Virus record (IMG/VR): IMGVR_UViG_3300028844_003505
Span: 1-60,730 of that record
From: a virus
Lineage: Duplodnaviria; Caudoviricetes
Reading direction: 5' to 3' (one strand)
DNA length: 60,730 bases
Positions 2,851 through 57,126 of this stretch are shown piece after piece. Each line of letters starts with the position of its first letter. Within the stretch, counting starts at the first letter, position 1. The notes under the pieces were generated by a model. The model saw only the letters and a program-made list of their open reading frames with translations. It was not told the origin of the DNA and ran no database searches. The position numbers were made by a program, and so were the translations under genes.

Positions 2851-4281
2851 ATGTATCTTGCTGAAAACAATATTGATCGAACAGAAGCGGTTAGAAACAA
2901 ATGGACTGAAAATGGAGTCCTAGAGCATTCTGACTTAGCTCCTATTAACGATCCTTACAAACGGGATGCCACACTTCGACTCTTAGAAAACCAAGAGAAG
3001 TTTTTGAGTGAAGCACCTACAAACATAATTGGGGATGATCCTACAAATACGGGTAATGTACGAACATGGGACCCAATTTTAATTAGCCTAGTTAGACGAA
3101 CTATTCCTAACTTGATTGCCTTCGATGTAGTTGGCGTTCAACCTATGTCTGGACCTACTGGTTTGGTGTTCGCAATGAAAGCGAATTACACCAGTTCTGG
3201 TGGAGCAGAGGCTAGTGGACAATCAGAGTACGATACTGATTTCTCTGGTCAGAATGCTCTAACGGCTGGTGGACCTGCCAATACTTTAGGTTCTCCATTG
3301 CATGTTGACACAGATGATACCAACAATCCATTTGCTGGTACATGGTTAACTGGTACAGGAATGTTAACATCGGAGTCTGAAGCGTTAGGTGATGCTACGG
3401 ATAACCATTTCCAAGAAATGGCATTCAGCATCGAGAAGACTTCCGTTGAAGCAAAATCACGAGCATTGAAAGCTGAATACTCTCTTGAATTGCAACAAGA
3501 TTTACGAGCAGTTCATGGTTTGGATGCAGAAACCGAATTAGCAAATATTCTTTCACAAGAAATCACTGGAGAAATCAATCGGGAAATCATCCGAATGGTA
3601 TACACAGTTGCTAAACCGGGAGCGCAAAAGAACACACAATCAGCAGGAACATTTGATCTAGACACAGATGCCAATGGTAGATGGTCTGTTGAAAAATACA
3701 AAGGTCTTATGATGCAGATTGAACGAGAAGCAAACGCTATCGCTAAAGAAACACGAAGAGGAAGAGGTAATATCATTATCTGTTCATCAGATGTAGCTTC
3801 TGCTCTAGCTATGACAGGAAAATTAGATATCAACCATGCGCTTTCAACTGGTCTAGAAGTAGACGATACTGGACGAACTTTTGCTGGTGTTCTTAACGGA
3901 CGTTACAAAGTTTATATTGATCCGTATTGGACTGTAAACAACACAGAAATCGCAGTAGTTGGTTATAAAGGTACTTCTTCACCAATGGATGCTGGTGTAT
4001 TCTATGCTCCATATGTTCCATTACAAATGGTTCGTGCAGTTGGGGAAAATACTTTCCAACCAAAAATTGCGTTTAAAACACGATACGGTCTTGTTAACAA
4101 TCCTTTCTTCAAAGGTGTTAATGCTACTGTTGGTGTTAAAACACGATACGGTCTTGTTAACAATCCTTTCTTCAAAGGTGTTAATGCTACTGTTGGTGGT
4201 GATACTAGTAACCCTTGGGCGGCTGGTTCTAAAAATGTTAACGCATATTACAGAAAAATAGCGATTAAGAACATTCTATAA
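2851..4281 (+). CDS. gp23: Major capsid protein gp23
   Basis: DPILISLVRR, GVQPMSGPTGLVFAM, AKSRALKAEYSLELQQDLRAVHGLDAE, FYAPYVPL and FQPKIAFKTRYG motifs. Confidence 0.99.
   Translation: MYLAENNIDRTEAVRNKWTENGVLEHSDLAPINDPYKRDATLRLLENQEKFLSEAPTNIIGDDPTNTGNVRTWDPILISLVRRTIPNLIAFDVVGVQPMSGPTGLVFAMKANYTSSGGAEASGQSEYDTDFSGQNALTAGGPANTLGSPLHVDTDDTNNPFAGTWLTGTGMLTSESEALGDATDNHFQEMAFSIEKTSVEAKSRALKAEYSLELQQDLRAVHGLDAETELANILSQEITGEINREIIRMVYTVAKPGAQKNTQSAGTFDLDTDANGRWSVEKYKGLMMQIEREANAIAKETRRGRGNIIICSSDVASALAMTGKLDINHALSTGLEVDDTGRTFAGVLNGRYKVYIDPYWTVNNTEIAVVGYKGTSSPMDAGVFYAPYVPLQMVRAVGENTFQPKIAFKTRYGLVNNPFFKGVNATVGVKTRYGLVNNPFFKGVNATVGGDTSNPWAAGSKNVNAYYRKIAIKNIL
4073..4198 (+). repeat. Perfect 63-nt tandem duplication inside gp23
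   Basis: 4073-4135 equals 4136-4198; peptide KTRYGLVNNPFFKGVNATVG occurs twice. Confidence 0.95.
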
Positions 4282-24802: not shown

Positions 24803-27307
24803 ATGATCCGAAAATTTTATACGAATGTATTTCCACTTAAAGGTAAAATATACGAGAGGTTTATAGACGACAATGGTTTAAAACAATTTACCAGTGTTAA
24901 CTATAAACCTTCTCTTTTTGAAGACGAATATTTACGATCCGATGGTTCTATGACACCATCTGGTTATGAAACTATTGATAAAAGACCTGCCAAAAAAATA
25001 GATTTTAAATCAATATATCAAGCCAAGCAATGGATAAAAGATAATAAAGGAATCGATAACCACAACATATATGGAAACGTGGATTTTCAATATCCATATA
25101 TTTCTGATATGTATCCTGATACTATTAATTATGATATTTCCAAGGTAGATATATTATTTTTTGATATTGAGGTAACAGCGAACAATGGATTTCCTAACGT
25201 TGATGATCCAGAAGATTCAGTTACTTCTATAACAGCACATTTAAATGGTAAATATCATGTTTTTGGTTTAGAGCAGTATACACCAAAAAGTTCCAATGTA
25301 GATTATACACTATGTTCCAGCGAACAAGATTTGTTATTTAAATTTATCACATTTTGGTCTAACGCAAAACCAGATATTGTTACTGGATGGTTTATTAAAC
25401 TGTTTGATATTCCTTATCTGATCGGTAGATGTATAAAGATTGGAATGAAAGATGAAATGAAATATCTTTCGCCTGTCAAGACAATCTTTGAAAAGTATGT
25501 ACATTTAAATAATAAAGATAATAGATGCTTCGATATATATGGAATATCTATATTAGATTATTATGACCTATATAAAAAATTCTCTCCTAAAAAACAAGAA
25601 TCATATAAATTAGGTTATATCGGATATGCCGAATTAGGATTGGACAAAATCCAAGATGATGAAATTGCTGGTTATAATTTATATAAAACAGATTATGAAA
25701 AGTTCATTGACTATAACATAAGAGATGTTGAAATTGTAGTTGAATTAGAGAGTAAATTAAAGATGATCGAATTGGTAATGTTTATAGCCTATCATGCAAA
25801 GGTTAATTACCAAGATGTTTTTTCTCCCGTTAAGACGTGGGATACCATCATTTTTAATTATCTAAAACAACATAAAATTGTTATTCCCCATAAAGATGCA
25901 AAAAGAAAAGATGCTAAATATGAGGGGGCATATGTAAAGGAGCCGAATTGTGGACGATATAATAATATATTATTATATGATTTCACATCACTATATCCCA
26001 GAATTATTTGTAGTTTGAATATAGGACCAGAAACAAAACGAGAGTATTATGATTTTGGAAGAGGTATTCAAGATGAATTGAATGGAGCAATTTCAAATAT
26101 AGATGTTGAATCAGTTCTAGAAAAAACAATGGACTTAGATGTTTTGAAGAAAGTTGGTTGTGGGATTGGTGTGAATGGTACATTATACGATAATTCGTTT
26201 CCGGGTATGTTGTCTATATTGATTAAAAAATTATCTAGTGATAGAACTGAGGCTCAAGAAAAAATGTTTGGATATCGGATTGAAGATGAATTTGGTTATG
26301 CATCTGAAATATCTTATTTGGATGTCAAACAACAGGCATTGAAAATTCTTCTTAACTCCCTGTATGGGGGATTAGGAAACCAATATTTTAGATTTTATGA
26401 TATCGACAATGCGGAAGCTGTTACTGTCACAGGACAAGCCTTGATTCAATGGGTAGAACGAAACATAAACAAGTTTTTGAATACATATTTTAATACAACT
26501 GATTTTGAATATGCATTTTATTGTGATACTGATTCTGTATTCTTAACAATACCAGATATTGATGTAGATAAATTAAAAGAATTTGGTAATAATATAATCA
26601 CTCCAAAGATAAAAGAATTGGTTGCCGAAGCTAGTGAATATTTAAATATGTATGAAAACTTTTTGTCAATGGGAATGGAAATAATAGCTAACACGGGTAT
26701 ATGGACTGCTAAGAAGCGATACATGATGAATGTTGTTCATAAGGATGGAAAGGATTATGACGAAGCTAGATTGAAGATAATGGGTATAGAGTCGGTAAGA
26801 ACATCAACACCAGAAATAGTACGCAAACGTATTGAAGAATGTATTACAATTATTTTAAGAAAGGAAAAGGCTGATGTTGAAAAATTCGTTCTTGATTTTG
26901 AAAAGGAATTTTCGTCATTACCTCCAGAAGATATTGCATTTCCAACCTCGATAAATGATATAGGCAAATATAAAAGTGATGATCTGTATTATCGTCTATA
27001 TGAAAAAGGAACTCCCATACATGTGCGGGGGAGTATTCTTTATAACAATCAGTTAACCGAACATGGGTTGACTCAATGGTATAATGAAATTAGAGATGGA
27101 GATAAAATTAAATTTGTGTATTTGATGTTGCCTAATGGTATTGGGGAGAATGTTATTTCATTTCCTTCAATACTACCAGAAGAATATGACTTACATAATT
27201 ATATAGATTATAAAACACAATTTCAAAAAACTTTTTTAGAACCAATAGAAAGAATAACAGATATTATTAATTGGAGAATTAACGGAACTCCATCGTTACC
27301 ATTTTAA
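24803..27307 (+). CDS. gp43: Family B DNA polymerase gp43
   Basis: FDIEV exonuclease, YDFTSLYP, KILLNSLYG, YCDTDS, KKRY motifs. Confidence 0.98.
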   Translation: MIRKFYTNVFPLKGKIYERFIDDNGLKQFTSVNYKPSLFEDEYLRSDGSMTPSGYETIDKRPAKKIDFKSIYQAKQWIKDNKGIDNHNIYGNVDFQYPYISDMYPDTINYDISKVDILFFDIEVTANNGFPNVDDPEDSVTSITAHLNGKYHVFGLEQYTPKSSNVDYTLCSSEQDLLFKFITFWSNAKPDIVTGWFIKLFDIPYLIGRCIKIGMKDEMKYLSPVKTIFEKYVHLNNKDNRCFDIYGISILDYYDLYKKFSPKKQESYKLGYIGYAELGLDKIQDDEIAGYNLYKTDYEKFIDYNIRDVEIVVELESKLKMIELVMFIAYHAKVNYQDVFSPVKTWDTIIFNYLKQHKIVIPHKDAKRKDAKYEGAYVKEPNCGRYNNILLYDFTSLYPRIICSLNIGPETKREYYDFGRGIQDELNGAISNIDVESVLEKTMDLDVLKKVGCGIGVNGTLYDNSFPGMLSILIKKLSSDRTEAQEKMFGYRIEDEFGYASEISYLDVKQQALKILLNSLYGGLGNQYFRFYDIDNAEAVTVTGQALIQWVERNINKFLNTYFNTTDFEYAFYCDTDSVFLTIPDIDVDKLKEFGNNIITPKIKELVAEASEYLNMYENFLSMGMEIIANTGIWTAKKRYMMNVVHKDGKDYDEARLKIMGIESVRTSTPEIVRKRIEECITIILRKEKADVEKFVLDFEKEFSSLPPEDIAFPTSINDIGKYKSDDLYYRLYEKGTPIHVRGSILYNNQLTEHGLTQWYNEIRDGDKIKFVYLMLPNGIGENVISFPSILPEEYDLHNYIDYKTQFQKTFLEPIERITDIINWRINGTPSLPF

Positions 27308-45559: not shown

Positions 45560-45635
45560 TGTAGTGTAGTATAATCGGTATTGCGCCTGTCTGTTAAACA
45601 GTAAGATGTAGGTTCGAGTCCTACCACTACAGCCA
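45560..45635 (+). tRNA. tRNA-Asn(GTT)
   Basis: Cloverleaf, U1-A72, G73, encoded CCA. Confidence 0.93.
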
Positions 45636-45639
45636 ATAT

Positions 45640-45715
45640 GTACCTGTAGCTCAGTTGGTAGAGCGTTTGTCTGTTAAACAAATGGTCGTAGGTTCAAGTC
45701 CTACCGGGTACTCCA
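45640..45715 (+). tRNA. tRNA with GTT anticodon (Asn) and atypical acceptor
   Basis: Cloverleaf; G1-C72, U73, CCA. Confidence 0.88.
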
Positions 45716-48729: not shown

Positions 48730-48808
48730 TGCGAGTTCGCCTAGTCTGGTCTAAGGCATCTGTTTCATACGCAGATTAACGTTGGTTCAAATCCAACACT
48801 CGCAACCA
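48730..48808 (+). tRNA. tRNA-CAT (Met; fMet/Ile2 not excluded)
   Basis: Cloverleaf, CAT anticodon, CCA. Confidence 0.88.
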
Positions 48809-50346: not shown

Positions 50347-50421
50347 CTGGAATGTAGGTGTTGAATCCTACCATCAAAATAGAGTTATGGATGTTTCGAT
50401 GTAGTTTAAGAAAAACACCAG
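50347..50421 (+). ncRNA. Circularly permuted tRNA-like RNA 3
   Basis: CTGG / T arm GTAGG-TGTTGAAT-CCTAC / CATC...GATG closed acceptor / TA-GTTT-AAGAA-AAAC / CCAG. Confidence 0.6.
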
Positions 50422-50436
50422 CTTAGAATTAAAAGA

Positions 50437-50536
50437 GCCGAGAGTATGGGTTCGAATCCCATTATGTAATTAAAGTGTATGCCTATCCATAACTATTTAT
50501 ATATTTATCATATAGTTTAATTGGTAGAACATCGGC
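50437..50536 (+). ncRNA. Circularly permuted tRNA-like RNA 4
   Basis: GCCGA / ATGGG-TTCGAAT-CCCAT / TATG...CATA closed acceptor / TAGTTTAATTGGTAGAACA / TCGGC. Confidence 0.75.
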
Positions 50537-50602: not shown

Positions 50603-51733
50603 ATGAATAAATTTAAAGCACCAGAAGAAGCATCTAACATATATATAGACCATGTTAGCAAAAAAGCAAAGTTTGATTATTTGATTTATATTGGAAGATT
50701 TCAACCATTTCATAATGGACACAAGAAAGTAGTTGAAACTGGTTGTGCTATTTCAGATAAAGTGATTATATTGTGTGGTTCGTGTAATGTTCCTAGAACT
50801 ATTAAGAATCCATTTATATTTGAAGAACGAAAGAATTATATAGAGAAAACATTCGAGCATACTGAATATAAAGATCAGGTTATTATTAGAGGTCTTAATG
50901 ATATGGCATCTAATTCCGAATGGATAATTCAAGTCCAAAATATAATTAATGCATTGACAGAAGCTAATATCTCTGAAAATGTAAAGATTGGAATTATTGG
51001 ACATATGAAAGATGAATCATCTTGGTATCTGGAAAAATTGAATCTAGAATTTATTGAAGTTGGTATTTACAAAGACAGTACAAATATTGCAAATAAAAAA
51101 GTAGATTCTACTGATATTAGGAATCATATTTTTACAAATGAGCAGTACGAGTATAAAAATATAATTTCTGATGCAATGCAATATTGGCTTGAAGATTGGA
51201 AACGAGAAAAATGGGATGTGTATGAACATCTTCAAAAAGAGTATAAATTCAATAAAGAATATAAAAAGCAATGGGAAGGTTCTCCATTCCCTGTTCAATT
51301 TGTAACTGTTGATGCAGTAGTAGTTCAAAATGGACATATTCTTCTAATACAAAGAAAAACACAACCGGGTAAAGATTTATGGGCATTGCCGGGTGGGTTT
51401 TTAAATGAAGATGAAACATTACGTGAAGGAGTTTTACGAGAACTTAAAGAAGAAACACAATTAAAAGTTCCATCTAAGATTTTAGCAACACATATTCAAA
51501 ATCAAAATTCAATAGCTTTTGATAATCCACATAGATCGTTGAGGGGTAGAACAATTACTCACGTATTTGTTTTTAACTTACAACCTGATCCAGAAACTGG
51601 ATTATCTAATATCAAAGGCTCCGATGATGCGAAAGATGCTAAATGGGTTCCTTTGAACGAGTTCGACAAGATGGCAAAGGAAATGTTTGAAGATCATTAT
51701 TTTATTGCCGAGCATTTTATTAAACAATTATAA
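50603..51733 (+). CDS. nadM: Bifunctional NMN adenylyltransferase / Nudix ADP-ribose pyrophosphatase (NadM-Nudix, NatV-like)
   Basis: IGRFQPFHNGH, STDIR, ALPGGF..ETL..GVLRELKEET, GSDDAKDAKW motifs. Confidence 0.95.
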   Translation: MNKFKAPEEASNIYIDHVSKKAKFDYLIYIGRFQPFHNGHKKVVETGCAISDKVIILCGSCNVPRTIKNPFIFEERKNYIEKTFEHTEYKDQVIIRGLNDMASNSEWIIQVQNIINALTEANISENVKIGIIGHMKDESSWYLEKLNLEFIEVGIYKDSTNIANKKVDSTDIRNHIFTNEQYEYKNIISDAMQYWLEDWKREKWDVYEHLQKEYKFNKEYKKQWEGSPFPVQFVTVDAVVVQNGHILLIQRKTQPGKDLWALPGGFLNEDETLREGVLRELKEETQLKVPSKILATHIQNQNSIAFDNPHRSLRGRTITHVFVFNLQPDPETGLSNIKGSDDAKDAKWVPLNEFDKMAKEMFEDHYFIAEHFIKQL

Positions 51734-51770
51734 TTACAATATTAATAACTTATTTTAAGGGGGTCTTAAA

Positions 51771-53204
51771 ATGAATAAACGAAATATTATTTTAAATACT
51801 GATAGTTATAAACTTAGTCACTATAAACAATATCCAAAAGACACACAAACGATTTACTCTTATATTGAAAGTCGTGGTGGTCGATTTGATAAAACATTAT
51901 TCTTTGGTTTGCAAATGTTTATTAAAGAATATTTACAGAAACCGATCACCGCAGTAGATATTCTTGAAGCAAAAGATGTTGCAGAAAAACATGGTCTTTC
52001 CTTTAATGAGGAAGGATGGAATTACATTCTTAAAGAACATGGTGGCAAACTACCATTAAAAATCAGAGCAGTTAATGAAGGTGTTCTTGTTCCAGTATCT
52101 AATGTGATGGTGACGATGGAAAATACTGATCCGAAATGTTTTTGGCTAACTAACTATATCGAAACAGCACTGTTGCGAGCAATTTGGTATCCAACCACAG
52201 TAGCTACACAGAGTTATGAGATAAAGAAAATGATTTATAAATACTTAGAGGAAACTTCTGATGATCCAGATACAGAGATTGGTTTCAAATTACATGATTT
52301 TGGTGCAAGGGGAGTATCTAGCTTTGAGTCTGCTGGTATTGGTGGACTTGCACATCTTATAAATTTTATGGGTACAGATACGCTTACGGCTCTCCTGTAC
52401 GCCCGTGAATATTATAATGAAGATATGGCGGGATTTTCTTGTAACGCATCCGAACATTCTACTATTACTGCATGGGGTCGTAAGTTCGAGCGAGAAGCAT
52501 ACGAGAATATGATAAATCAGTATGGTGGCGAGGGTAAGATGTTTGCTTGTGTATCTGATTCTTATGATATCTATAATGCAGTAAACAATATTTGGGGAAA
52601 TCAACTAAAAGAAAAGGTTATTAATAATGGTGCTAGATTAATTATCAGACCTGATTCTGGAGTTCCAGAAAAAGTTGTTCCGCAAATTTTAAAAGACCTT
52701 ATGAACCATTTTGGTTCTACCAAAAATTCTAAAGGATATTTGGTATTGCCGGATTATGTTCGAGTTATTCAAGGTGATGGAATTAATTTTGATTCTATTA
52801 AACGTATTCTTGAAAAACTAAAAGAATGTGGAATTAGTGCCGACAACGTTGCGTTTGGTATGGGTGGAGCATTGTTGCAACAGTTAGACAGAGATACACA
52901 ACAATTTGCAATGAAATGTTCTGCTATCTTGAGAGATAATAAATGGGAAGATGTTTACAAAGAACCAGTGACTGATGCTGGTATGTCTTTTCAGAAAAAA
53001 TCTAAGCCGGGAAGATTGACTCTGATTTGGGATAATGTCAAGAAAAAACACAGAACAGAAAGATATCCATTAGCACACCAACCTTGGCAAGCAGGACCAG
53101 CTAATGAATGGTCTCATATGGAAGTAATGCATACTGTTTTTGAAAATGGAAAACTAGTTGCAGAATCTTCTTTGAAAGATATTCGTAGTAGAGTTAAATT
53201 ATAA
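51771..53204 (+). CDS. nadV: Nicotinamide phosphoribosyltransferase
   Basis: TDSYKLSH, LHDFGARG, ASEHS, VSDSYD, IRPDSG, IQGDG, FGMGGALLQ motifs. Confidence 0.96.
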   Translation: MNKRNIILNTDSYKLSHYKQYPKDTQTIYSYIESRGGRFDKTLFFGLQMFIKEYLQKPITAVDILEAKDVAEKHGLSFNEEGWNYILKEHGGKLPLKIRAVNEGVLVPVSNVMVTMENTDPKCFWLTNYIETALLRAIWYPTTVATQSYEIKKMIYKYLEETSDDPDTEIGFKLHDFGARGVSSFESAGIGGLAHLINFMGTDTLTALLYAREYYNEDMAGFSCNASEHSTITAWGRKFEREAYENMINQYGGEGKMFACVSDSYDIYNAVNNIWGNQLKEKVINNGARLIIRPDSGVPEKVVPQILKDLMNHFGSTKNSKGYLVLPDYVRVIQGDGINFDSIKRILEKLKECGISADNVAFGMGGALLQQLDRDTQQFAMKCSAILRDNKWEDVYKEPVTDAGMSFQKKSKPGRLTLIWDNVKKKHRTERYPLAHQPWQAGPANEWSHMEVMHTVFENGKLVAESSLKDIRSRVKL

Positions 53205-53227
53205 ATAATAATCTTGGATGGCGTTTT

Positions 53228-53314
53228 ATGAAAAAAAATCTATTTGTGAAGGATAATATCAAATCAGAGATATACGGGAGCATGAAATATGCTCCCGTAG
53301 CTCAATGGCAGTAG
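53228..53314 (+). promoter_or_regulatory. Leader ORF reading into tRNA-Ile(UAU) with an anti-acceptor hairpin
   Basis: MKKNLFVKDNIKSEIYGSMKYAPVAQWQ; ATA codon at 53270 directly precedes TACGGGAGCAT, which pairs with ATGCTCCCGTA. Confidence 0.5.
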
Positions 53315-53362
53315 CGGTCTCCTTATAAGAGATTGACGTAGGTTCGAATCCTACCGGGAGCA
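53291..53362 (+). tRNA. tRNA-Ile(TAT)
   Basis: Cloverleaf, loop CT-TAT-AA, A73; CCA not encoded. Confidence 0.85.
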
Positions 53363-53397
53363 TAATTTATGCTCATAAAATTTAAAGGGGTATAATT

Positions 53398-53856
53398 ATG
53401 ATTGATAAATTTGAAGGTGATTATAGATTTTTATCTAATTTTTGGGAGTGTCCTATTCTTTGGAATGGTGTTACATATAAATCAGCAGAACATTTTTATC
53501 AAGCTAGAAAAGCAATAACACCAGAAGATCACGAAAAAATTCGTAATGCTTCAGTCTCTGAATGCAAACGAATTGGTAATAGAATAGATATTCGTGATGA
53601 TTGGGATAGTATTAAAATTCGTGTCATGGATGATGTTGTGTTTTTAAAGTTTACACAGAACAAAGATTTACAAATAAAACTCATGAAAACATTTCCTTCT
53701 CGATTAGTTGAAGGTAATACATGGCATGATAATTTTTGGGGAAATTGTACTTGTAAAAAATGCAGTAAACAATTTGGAAAGAATTATTTAGGACAAACTC
53801 TAGAACATTGGAGACAAATGTTTATTGTGGATATGATAGAAAAATTGGGGTCGTAG
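53398..53856 (+). CDS. NADAR family ADP-ribosylhydrolase (YbiA-like)
   Basis: FLSNF, SAEHFYQARK, LKFTQN, LVEGNTWHDNFWG, GKNYLG motifs. Confidence 0.92.
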   Translation: MIDKFEGDYRFLSNFWECPILWNGVTYKSAEHFYQARKAITPEDHEKIRNASVSECKRIGNRIDIRDDWDSIKIRVMDDVVFLKFTQNKDLQIKLMKTFPSRLVEGNTWHDNFWGNCTCKKCSKQFGKNYLGQTLEHWRQMFIVDMIEKLGS

Positions 53857-53923
53857 CTAAATTGGGAAAGCACCTGCTTTGCACGTAGAAGATGTGAGAG
53901 TTCGAATCTCTCCGACTCCACCA
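53847..53923 (+). tRNA. tRNA-Ala(TGC)
   Basis: G3:U70, TGC anticodon, ACCA. Confidence 0.93.
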
Positions 53924-53984
53924 AATTATTTAATAAGAAAGTATCGAAATTGATATTTATTAATTTAAACGAAAGTGAATACGT

Positions 53985-54629
53985 ATGAAAAAAAATTATA
54001 GTAAACTTGTTTACATCATGGATCGATCTGGTTCTATGCATGGATTGACTGAAAAATCTGTAGAAGGATTTAATTCTTTTGTTCAAGATCAAAAGAAAAT
54101 TGAAGGAACCGCAGATTTAACTCTTGCAATTTTTGATACTGAATATGAAACAGTATTTGAAGATGTAGATATTAAATCTGTTCATCCAATCACGGAAAAA
54201 GATATTTATGCAAGAGGTATGACAGCATTGTTGGATGCTATTGGTAGAACAATCGATTCTGTAGGATCAAAGATAGATAAACTTGGGGAAAATCAAAAAC
54301 CAGAACATGTTGTAGTTGTGGTTATGACAGATGGACACGAAAATTCCTCACAAGAATACAATAGAGAACAAATTAAAAAGTTGATTACCCAACAGGAAGA
54401 TGTTTATAATTGGAATTTTCTATTCATGGGAGCAAATCAAGACTCATTTGCTACTGGTGGTGGTCTAGGATTTAAGAGCGGAAATATTTCAAATTTTGAC
54501 GCATCTATTCAAGGAGCCGCAACTGCATATTCAACAACTTCAAATTTTGTTGGTAATCTTCGATGTAAGGTAGAAAATAAATCTTTGTCAGATACATACA
54601 AAGACGAAGAAGAAAAATTATCAAAATAA
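53985..54629 (+). CDS. vWA-domain protein
   Basis: DRSGSM, TALLDAIG, MTDGHENSS, FLFMGANQD motifs. Confidence 0.9.
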   Translation: MKKNYSKLVYIMDRSGSMHGLTEKSVEGFNSFVQDQKKIEGTADLTLAIFDTEYETVFEDVDIKSVHPITEKDIYARGMTALLDAIGRTIDSVGSKIDKLGENQKPEHVVVVVMTDGHENSSQEYNREQIKKLITQQEDVYNWNFLFMGANQDSFATGGGLGFKSGNISNFDASIQGAATAYSTTSNFVGNLRCKVENKSLSDTYKDEEEKLSK

Positions 54630-56179: not shown

Positions 56180-56211
56180 ACGGGACTGTTAAGAGAATTA
56201 TGTAGAATACA

Positions 56212-56281
56212 AACAGTCGCCCAACTGGTTAGGGCAATAGTTATTGAAAACTATCGGTTGCGGGTTCGATTCCCGCCTGTT
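56212..56281 (+). ncRNA. tRNA-like element with 5-bp acceptor, non-7-nt anticodon loop and no CCA
   Basis: Good D arm GCCC-AACTGGTTA-GGGC and T arm GCGGG-TTCGATT-CCCGC. Confidence 0.65.
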
Positions 56282-56292
56282 AAAACAACTTT

Positions 56293-56547: not shown

Positions 56548-57126
56548 ATGAGTGTACGATTAGACAAATTTTTAGTAATTGATCTTGAAGCTACTTGTTG
56601 GGAAGATGGTGTTGCTCCAAATGGAAAACTTCAAAAAGAAGAATCTGAAATTATTGAAATAGGAGTATGTGAAGTATTTAAATTGGATAATAAATACCAT
56701 ACCGGAAGATTGCAAAGTTATTATGTAAAACCAACAAAACATATTATAAGTGATTATTGTGAAGAATTAACAGGTATATCAGAATCACTATTGGAAGATA
56801 AAGGAACTACTTTAGATAGAGCATTGCATAACTTCAATAAAGATTTCGCCCCAAAATATAAACCATATATGGCATGGGGAAATTATGATAAGAAACAAAT
56901 CTTAAAGGAATGTGAAGAAAAGCAGATACTTAATAGGTATAAATTTTCAGATACATATCTAAATATAAAGAATTTGTTTTCATTAAAATATGGATTAGAT
57001 AAAGAAATTAGATTGAGTAAAGCATTAGAACTTGCAGGTATGGAATTTATTGGAAATGCTCATAGTGGAAAAGATGATGCACACAATACAGCTAGAATTT
57101 TATTGAAACTTATTAACCCTCTATAG
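56548..57126 (+). CDS. DEDDh 3'-5' exonuclease (ERI1/KapD-like)
   Basis: VIDLEATC, EIIEIG, ELTGI, WGNYD, HSGKDDA motifs. Confidence 0.9.
   Translation: MSVRLDKFLVIDLEATCWEDGVAPNGKLQKEESEIIEIGVCEVFKLDNKYHTGRLQSYYVKPTKHIISDYCEELTGISESLLEDKGTTLDRALHNFNKDFAPKYKPYMAWGNYDKKQILKECEEKQILNRYKFSDTYLNIKNLFSLKYGLDKEIRLSKALELAGMEFIGNAHSGKDDAHNTARILLKLINPL

Follow-up and report, generated by a model that had tools for sequence, protein, structure and literature searches.

How can a transfer RNA (tRNA) gene flanked by inverted copies of both strands of its own acceptor stem still deliver a mature tRNA? The question is raised by the tRNA-Ile(UAU) gene of IMG/VR virus record IMGVR_UViG_3300028844_003505, whose 60,730 bases are referred to here as the window. 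Each flank of the gene contains a short stretch in which the neighbouring acceptor strand is repeated perfectly in inverted form. Upstream, TACGGGAGCAT (53273-53283) is the exact reverse complement of ATGCTCCCGTA (53289-53299), so that 11 of 11 Watson-Crick pairs can form around a GAAAT loop; downstream, GAGCATA (53358-53364) pairs with TATGCTC (53368-53374) at 7 of 7 positions around an ATT loop. Both repeats had been pointed out in an original prediction based on the letters of the window, and every string that it quoted was found again at its place with the pairing complete. The prediction regarded the tRNA as locked between the copies, and overlooked the pairing of the flanks with each other: because the upstream element complements the 5' strand and the downstream element complements the 3' strand, the two elements are also complementary to one another. 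The architecture of this precursor is unusual and the tRNA is otherwise ordinary, and there is as yet no evidence of a deliberate switch.

Four segments take part in these pairings (Table 1). Segment 2 can be paired with segment 1 or, through tRNA positions 1-7, with the 3' acceptor strand, and bases 53358-53364 of segment 3 have segment 4 as their alternative partner. Pairing of 1 with 2 and of 3 with 4 produces two hairpins and no acceptor stem, while pairing of 2 with 3 and of 1 with 4 produces the cloverleaf on a helix of about 20 bp. In the latter fold, 53288-53290 pair with 53362-53364, an A.A mismatch follows (53287/53365), and 53278-53286 pair with 53366-53374; the resulting leader:trailer helix has 12 pairs, one of them G.U, and stacks on the 7-bp acceptor stem.

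The folding energies calculated for 53255-53395 are -40.0 kcal/mol for the cloverleaf with the leader:trailer helix, -35.5 kcal/mol for the two hairpins with the anticodon and T arms, -27.6 kcal/mol for the 5' hairpin with the same two arms, and -23.2 kcal/mol for the cloverleaf alone. For 53260-53390, the minimum free energy (MFE) fold is again the cloverleaf with the leader:trailer helix, at -44.0 kcal/mol (z = -4.46). The pair probabilities for 53255-53395 are about 0.79 for the acceptor and leader:trailer pairs and about 0.20 for the hairpin pairs; the two-hairpin fold makes up about 20% of this ensemble and 63-76% in a long mRNA context at 37 C. Over six transcript ranges containing both flanks, the probability of the acceptor stem lies between 0.22 and 0.93 at 37 C, and between 0.10 and 0.93 at 20 C. 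When the leader is present and the trailer absent (53264-53362), this probability is 0.0 and that of the 5' hairpin is 0.99, and once the leader is removed the acceptor stem reaches 0.99. In growing prefixes of the transcript the 5' hairpin is the MFE state through transcript end 53368 and the fold has switched by 53372, with a direct-path barrier of 20.7 kcal/mol out of the two-hairpin state.

On these calculations the precursor is bistable, with two mutually exclusive folds of near-equal energy, a near-equality that follows automatically from the geometry of the copies. The two-hairpin fold without an acceptor stem, as originally proposed, is thus real and competitive, and the cloverleaf does not dominate regardless of its flanks. 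The notion of a locked tRNA fared less well: the tRNA is not simply locked, since pairing between the two flanks brings the cloverleaf back.

Table 1. The tRNA-Ile(UAU) locus: segments, tRNA and neighbouring reading frames (window coordinates; ORF, open reading frame)
Feature	Position	Strand	Remark
Segment 1, upstream inverted copy (anti-acceptor)	53273..53283	+	reverse complement of 53289-53299; loop 53284-53288 GAAAT
Segment 2	53289..53299	+	leader bases -2 and -1 and tRNA positions 1-9
Segment 3	53355..53364	+	3' acceptor strand 53355-53361, A73, trailer +1 and +2
Segment 4, downstream inverted copy	53368..53374	+	7-bp partner 53358-53364; alternatively segment 1 and leader
Leader strand of leader:trailer helix	53278..53290	+	partner 53362-53374; MFE fold of 53260-53390
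tRNA-Ile(UAU), G1 to discriminator A73	53291..53362	+	Infernal/Rfam RF00005, 62.6 bits; anticodon TAT 53324-53326
TAA where the window's other tRNAs have CCA	53363..53365	+	18 of 20 ARAGORN tRNAs end in CCA
Hypothetical 28-codon ORF, unproven gene	53228..53314	+	reads across segment 1 into the tRNA; sole AUA 53270-53272
Nicotinamide phosphoribosyltransferase (NAMPT), upstream gene	51771..53204	+	Pfam NAPRTase 7.1e-57, NAMPT_N 5.5e-32
NADAR-domain protein, downstream gene	53398..53856	+	Pfam NADAR 6.3e-27

Judged by its sequence, the tRNA-Ile(UAU) gene is genuine and probably functional. Its Rfam score (Table 1) ranks 7th of 21 tRNA matches and stands against a gathering threshold of 29, and ARAGORN calls a tRNA-Ile(tat) at 53290-53363; the numbering used here is that of Infernal, from G1 at 53291 to C72 and A73 at 53362, followed by TAA. 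The cloverleaf consists of a 7-bp acceptor stem, a 3-bp D stem extended by C13.U22, a 5-bp anticodon stem and a 5-bp T stem, with the anticodon TAT in the 7-nt loop CTTATAA. It carries A73, A37, A38, C4:G69, U12:A23 and C29:G41, which we take, from work on E. coli, to be the identity elements for isoleucyl-tRNA synthetase. The CCA end is absent from two of the 20 tRNAs called by ARAGORN, namely tRNA-Ile(UAU) and an aberrant tRNA-like sequence at 56210-56284; the former is indeed, as the original prediction had it, the only one of 19 typed tRNAs without an encoded CCA.

A reader of AUA fits the tRNA set of the window. The AUA codon accounts for 340 of 1013 Ile codons and 2.65% of all codons in 36 long ORFs, the other tRNAs mostly carry U34, and no second AUA reader was found among the window's tRNAs, unless the tRNA with anticodon CAT at 48730 is of the Ile2 type. 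The codon is avoided in the capsid gene at 2851-4281 (2 of 26 Ile codons) and in the scaffold gene (2 of 23), and common in the DNA polymerase gene at 24803-27307 (36 of 85). This uneven use suggests that an AUA reader may be of greater value to replication genes than to those for capsid and scaffold.

The rarity of such flanks was judged from a survey of the window, of viral loci found via NAMPT or tRNA patterns, and of 118 metagenome loci picked with a loop-only tRNA-Ile(UAU) pattern, in all of which tRNAs were called by ARAGORN. After exclusion of exact duplicates, of tRNAs less than 40 nt from the end of a locus and of two copies of the window, 600 unique tRNAs were left, a non-random set enriched for tRNA-Ile(UAU) (110 loci, 64 of them without CCA). 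Only one tRNA has a perfect hairpin, 8 bp or longer, that captures the 5' acceptor strand, and only one has capture hairpins of 6 bp or more on each side; in both cases it was the tRNA-Ile(UAU) of the window, and none of the 109 other unique tRNA-Ile(UAU) loci has capture hairpins on both sides. Single-sided hairpins of at least 6 bp were found at four of the 600 tRNAs on the 5' side and at three on the 3' side, the window locus included. That the one both-sided case occurs where single-sided ones are this rare suggests a connection between the two flanks, such as that of a lock with its compensator. Five class-I tRNA-Ile(UAU) examples from viral contigs have no flank copies, and CCA is missing in four of them. 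A precursor predicted to be bistable through copies of its own acceptor strands is thus unmatched among the surveyed tRNAs.

The reading that we favour, tentatively and at somewhat less than an even chance, is that local inverted duplications gave rise to an anti-acceptor and to its compensator, which makes the locus a lineage-specific compensated accident and not a dedicated regulator. The copies would have arisen beside their source, for example by template switching during replication, which can create perfect RNA hairpins in one event (PMC8794818). Template-switch hairpins share with the present ones the perfect reverse-complement repeats next to the source and the arbitrary loops; the difference is that this locus would need two events, one for each end of the tRNA. 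In the computed folds, the upstream copy would act as an anti-acceptor, seizing the 5' strand immediately after that strand has been made, and the downstream copy would neutralise it by pairing with it, freeing the acceptor stem. Given the rarity of single-sided hairpins (4 and 3 of 600), two independent neutral events at one gene are unlikely, and the simplest link between the flanks would be that the second duplication was selected because it neutralised the first. The decayed tRNA-like pieces at 56210-56284 and 50395-50470 suggest, in addition, that the tRNA region is prone to rearrangement.

Details of the repeats point to the same origin. The match of segment 1 to the reverse complement of 53289-53299 includes U8 and A9, and to be a direct copy of the tRNA 3' end segment 1 would have had to lose 1 nt. 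Outside the short copies, the flanks match the tRNA at 15 of 65 and 19 of 67 positions (16.0 and 16.5 expected), and the two 8-nt spacers share five bases and differ at three, while the copies are perfect. The exact reverse complement, the chance-level flanks and the differing spacers together argue for inverted duplication next to the source and against the remnant of a tandem array. Three other origins were considered and rejected: remnants of a tandem tRNA array, because flank similarity is at chance and the spacers are not identical; a rolling-circle or greater-than-unit-length insertion, because perfect copies are accompanied by spacers with differences at 3 of 8 positions; and a dispersed repeat, because GGGAGCAT (five copies in the window against 0.55 expected, three of them within the tRNA-Ile(UAU) locus) occurs outside the locus only twice, in a tRNA-Pro and in an ORF.

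The tRNA would then mature by steps that known enzymology suggests. An intact trailer would be needed for the acceptor stem to form. RNase P would be expected to cut after the leader bases A(-2)U(-1), the optimal dinucleotide for the E. coli enzyme (PMC9433436), and an RNase Z/BN-type enzyme to cut after A73, RNase Z being reported to cleave CCA-less precursors endonucleolytically (PMC2777011). The CCA end would be supplied by a CCA-adding enzyme, presumably that of the host, as for the CCA-less tRNAs of T4; no CCA-adding enzyme was found in the window.

Relatives of the locus were sought in several collections. A blastn search of 50,697 records of cultured phages with 52700-54100 and with the tRNA and its flanks returned nothing but pieces of NAMPT or of generic tRNAs; coverage of the query reached 80% in 0 of 19 and 0 of 520 records, and the tRNA alone matched tRNA-Lys and tRNA-Asn genes of phages. 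Exact-pattern scans gave no match to the tRNA body in viral, metagenome and genome contigs, and none to the 5' hairpin with the start of the tRNA in viral and genome contigs. No tRNA-Ile lies near the gene in 12 NAMPT relatives (38-62% identical over long matches), and the whole records of five of these contain only tRNA-Ile(GAU), at most 77% alike. Relatives of the gp23 capsid protein are 53-63% identical among the 80 kept of 599. In two runs from what is probably the source sample the stretch is present with no difference, and a third run, an estuary metagenome of another study, contains identical 151-nt pieces (53714-53864 and 53934-54084), none of them over the tRNA; hence there is no population variation to read. 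A literature search, mostly of titles and abstracts, produced no natural pre-tRNA whose flanks copy its acceptor strands.

Several considerations weigh against the compensated duplication. All of the energies are nearest-neighbour estimates, which ignore tertiary contacts, Mg2+, modifications, ribosomes and helicases, and the model cannot say which fold dominates in the cell, as the calculated balance moves between 0.22 and 0.93 with the transcript ends chosen. Among the runs listed for the locus, no RNA sequencing run carries it. As no relative was found in the searched collections, a recent origin or an absence of selection would go beyond what the comparison of sequences shows. The rescued fold would itself be a poor substrate, since leader:trailer pairing next to the cleavage site inhibits E. 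coli RNase P: already two or more leader pairs extending the acceptor stem are reported to lower its kcat/Km (PMC9433436). The 12-pair helix would therefore have to be opened or cut before RNase P can act, and another nuclease may be needed. Finally, the perfect 11-bp and 7-bp repeats in a phage of 32% GC could equally have been kept by selection, and that one tRNA should have acquired independent duplications at its two ends is improbable without selection of the second, which is an assumption.

One alternative holds that the leader:trailer helix, about 20 bp long with the acceptor stem, is itself a selected processing stalk and that the two hairpins are its by-products, a reading that we consider rather unlikely. 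Such a stalk might insulate the tRNA within a polycistronic mRNA, shield its ends or present a double-strand site of the RNase III type, which would start the maturation of the one tRNA without CCA. The leader:trailer fold is the MFE structure for short transcripts and, in silico, a nearly continuous duplex of about 20 bp is found (the 7-bp acceptor stem and 12 pairs with one mismatch), the inner part of which is all A/U and could breathe for RNase P and RNase Z. Furthermore, the spacers pair at 4 of 5 positions, which the hairpins do not require (rough chance estimate 0.08-0.09). The perfection lies, however, in the hairpins, while the stalk contains a G.U pair and the A.A mismatch; the pairing of segment 1 with the tRNA is 11 bp long and takes in U8 and A9, and only 6 of these 11 bases take part in the leader:trailer helix, for which a copy of the acceptor stem is not needed at all.

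Long leader:trailer helices do recur elsewhere. Extensions of at least 6 pairs were found at 14 of the 600 tRNAs, 11 of these 14 without CCA, and extensions of at least 10 pairs at 5 of the 110 tRNA-Ile(UAU) loci, the one of the window included, all five CCA-less; the link between long helices and loss of CCA is nevertheless marginal, and within the window 19 of 20 tRNAs have at most three extra pairs. The other four long-helix tRNA-Ile(UAU) loci have no capture hairpins. A duplex of about 12-14 leader:trailer pairs on a terminal stem is also known from rRNA operons (PMC10250234), a precedent for a processing stalk, and is shared by other CCA-less tRNAs, at the loci L099, L161, L181 and L198, and by phage tRNA-His genes, at L023, L028 and L066. 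What distinguishes the window is that its outer helix copies the acceptor stem, so that the strands can refold onto the tRNA, which they cannot at the other loci.

The last three of these loci are tRNA-His genes of viral contigs (L023 826-898, L028 7113-7187 and L066 9645-9719) with leader:trailer helices of 13-14 bp that differ from that of the window in sequence. They share the frame aggt-G...CACCCC-(t/A)a, their outer sequences differ yet stay complementary, and the full CCA is missing in two of the three. The pattern resembles a processing stalk of phage tRNA-His that is conserved and co-varies.

Two of the others, L099 (270-470) and L181 (6090-6300, minus strand), are bacterial metagenome contigs with a CCA-less tRNA-Ile(UAU) on a helix of about 14 bp. 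The flanks of L099 look as though a second copy of the same tRNA had been interrupted, its 5' half lying on one side and its 3' half on the other. Common to the two loci is a downstream element of the form GTT(T/C)(C/T)CCGCCACATTAATTA, a relative of which, GGTTTCCCGCCAC, follows a tRNA-Val in L181, and Rfam recognised only the tRNA in either locus. The metagenome tRNA-Ile(UAU) genes with long leader:trailer helices were set aside as weak analogues, L181 being bacterial and both L099 and L181 carrying extra conserved flank elements; as evidence for a stalk they are reduced by this more complex conserved bacterial context, which may represent a different phenomenon.

A true conformational switch, in which the two-hairpin trap would control whether the AUA reader matures, appears unlikely. 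Its topology, 1:2 and 3:4 against 2:3, is that of a switch, the two folds are near-isoenergetic in silico, and the trap forms first in the prefix folding, behind the barrier of 20.7 kcal/mol. The near-equal energies are nonetheless an automatic result of the copy geometry, and the argument is post hoc and built on one sequence. In the original prediction the switch served to restrain a potentially toxic tRNA. The structural competition that it foresaw is real, whereas the toxic and locked parts of the claim are unsupported and no trigger was identified. The toxicity rationale in particular is weak, as there are 109 other tRNA-Ile(UAU) loci without both-sided capture hairpins, and a B. subtilis strain living on a U34 tRNA-Ile tolerates it, with low-level misreading of AUG and growth about as wild type (PMC3919564).

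The tRNA-Ile(UAU) of Mycoplasma mobile (PMC3575796) and the B. subtilis suppressor of a tilS deletion (PMC3919564) resemble the present gene in that UAU reads AUA without lysidine. Those genes are cellular, and the abstracts of the two papers report no flanking capture hairpins; the gene of the window is phage-borne and has no encoded CCA. A synthetic riboswitch that controls RNase P in E. coli by hiding the leader shows that a concealed leader or acceptor strand blocks the enzyme (PMC7897497). That device is man-made.

A more specific form of the switch would work by attenuation through the hypothetical leader ORF of Table 1. With AUA decoding scarce, a ribosome stalled at its AUA would cover 53273-53283, the acceptor stem would form and RNase P would release the tRNA; when AUA decoding is ample, the precursor would enter the two-hairpin trap and stay in the NAMPT-NADAR mRNA. 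We hold this pair of outcomes, taken together, to be very improbable. The attenuators of the trp and his operons also have four segments with mutually exclusive pairings and a short ORF with the cognate codon before segment 1, and here the AUA lies directly 5' of segment 1. They differ in that the present locus has no terminator and its putative output is tRNA maturation. An intrinsic terminator was indeed rejected: when 52900-53700 was scanned for G+C-rich hairpins followed by a T run, the one terminator-like site was at 52964-52982, and neither flanking hairpin scored.

The Shine-Dalgarno (SD) score of the leader ORF is -5.5 kcal/mol, in the top 12% of 1597 ATGs; compared with the 36 long ORFs, of which 17 have an SD duplex as strong or stronger, it is a median value. 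An in-frame cognate codon within 40 nt upstream and after an ATG is also found at 2 of 18 other tRNAs (Trp and Gln), and AUA is no rarity at 2.65% of codons. Moreover, a sigma-70-like -10 element at 53252-57 would start the transcript inside the ORF, although it is a weak match of a kind with 6 sites against 3.6 expected.

It is decidedly unlikely that the gene is simply decaying, its CCA lost and its repeats gained by rearrangement, so that it is mostly misfolded and on its way to a tRNA-like remnant. It is the only typed tRNA of the window without CCA, the trap dominates in a long context, and remnants lie nearby, at 56210-56284 (5-bp acceptor stem, 6-nt anticodon loop, no CCA) and at 50395-50470 (T arm only). 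Against this, the tRNA body is intact, with a mid-range 62.6 bits (7th of 21), all of the Ile identity elements listed above are kept, AUA represents one third of the Ile codons of the phage and no other reader of it was found among the window's tRNAs unless the CAT tRNA at 48730 is Ile2, and absence of CCA is normal for the tRNA-Ile of T4.

That the repeats are a DNA-level element, with two GGGAGCAT-N5-ATGCTC palindromes as a direct repeat 80 bp apart serving as protein or recombinase sites and the tRNA as an excisable cassette, is scarcely probable: two similar palindromes do flank the tRNA body and the T4 homing endonuclease gene segB is annotated within the T4 tRNA cluster, but the motif is not dispersed (GGGAGCAT recurs outside the locus only in tRNA-Pro and an ORF), no recombinase was seen next to the locus, and exact-pattern scans of viral and genome contigs gave no empty or occupied site elsewhere.

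Apart from its flanks, the gene has a close counterpart in T4. There, the tRNA-Ile, tRNA-Pro and tRNA-Ser genes lack CCA and are followed by the trailers TAT, CT and TAA, respectively. The two T4-type phages thus have in common an AUA-reading tRNA-Ile of their own without encoded CCA, a U-rich trailer that starts with U (TAT for T4 Ile, TAA for T4 Ser and for the tRNA of the window) and a maturation that needs 3' trimming and CCA addition. In T4, this maturation depends on RNase BN and follows an obligatory order of steps. The T4 tRNA-Ile differs in having the anticodon CAT and not TAT, in lying 1 nt behind tRNA-Thr in the cluster and in having no inverted copies of its acceptor strands.

Phage tRNAs tend to be seen as plain supplements to codon usage. 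If the flanks of tRNA-Ile(UAU) were selected, the locus would be nature's equivalent of the RNase P riboswitches that have been engineered, with control exerted through pre-tRNA folding and applied to the rare UAU-anticodon solution for AUA. If the attenuator were real, the tRNA would be under feedback from its own codon at the level of precursor folding. If the flanks are scars, as the compensated duplication implies, they would provide a clean case of an inverted duplication crippling a structured-RNA gene and of a second duplication rescuing it.

The phage that carries the locus is a marine T4-like phage. The runs that contain the window are labelled marine metagenome; its G+C content is 32.2% and its estimated completeness is 33%. 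Pfam matches of the T4 set include the gp23 capsid protein, a prohead scaffold, UvsW, a family-B DNA polymerase, the gp45 clamp, a gp44-type loader, a RecA-family recombinase and a DnaB-type helicase, and genes for an SMC-type ATPase and a Metallophos nuclease are adjacent to each other. By these family assignments, the last pair would correspond to T4 gp46/47, the recombinase to UvsX and the helicase to gp41.

The 20 tRNA genes recognised by ARAGORN, or 21 matches to Rfam, lie from 45.5 kb onward among small genes, all on the + strand. The 193 nt that separate the NAMPT gene from the NADAR gene contain the tRNA-Ile(UAU) gene, inside a block for nicotinamide adenine dinucleotide (NAD) salvage (50603-53856), which begins with a fusion of a nicotinamide mononucleotide (NMN) adenylyltransferase-like and a NUDIX domain (50603-51733) and continues with NAMPT and the NADAR-domain protein. 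Another gene inside the tRNA region, at 56548-57126, encodes an exonuclease of the RNase T/DEDD family (Pfam RNase_T 2.7e-15), and its sequence makes it a possible phage contribution to the trimming of tRNA 3' ends.

The tRNA-like sequence at 56210-56284 scores 45.8 bits with Rfam, has five acceptor pairs only and no CCA, and was given no amino acid by ARAGORN; its anticodon arm can be drawn with a 6-bp stem and a 6-nt loop or with 5 bp and 8 nt. Either a tRNA in decay or a stable tRNA-like RNA would fit, the latter comparable to rnaC and rnaD of T4, which are also annotated within the T4 tRNA region. The sequence at 50395-50470, behind tRNA-Pro, is a borderline Rfam match (29.3 bits against a threshold of 29) missed by ARAGORN, of which the T arm alone folds (z = 0.24); it is probably a tRNA remnant. 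Finally, two diverged tRNA-Asn(GTT) genes stand in tandem at 45560-45715, 4 nt apart, which indicates that tRNA duplication has happened in this region.

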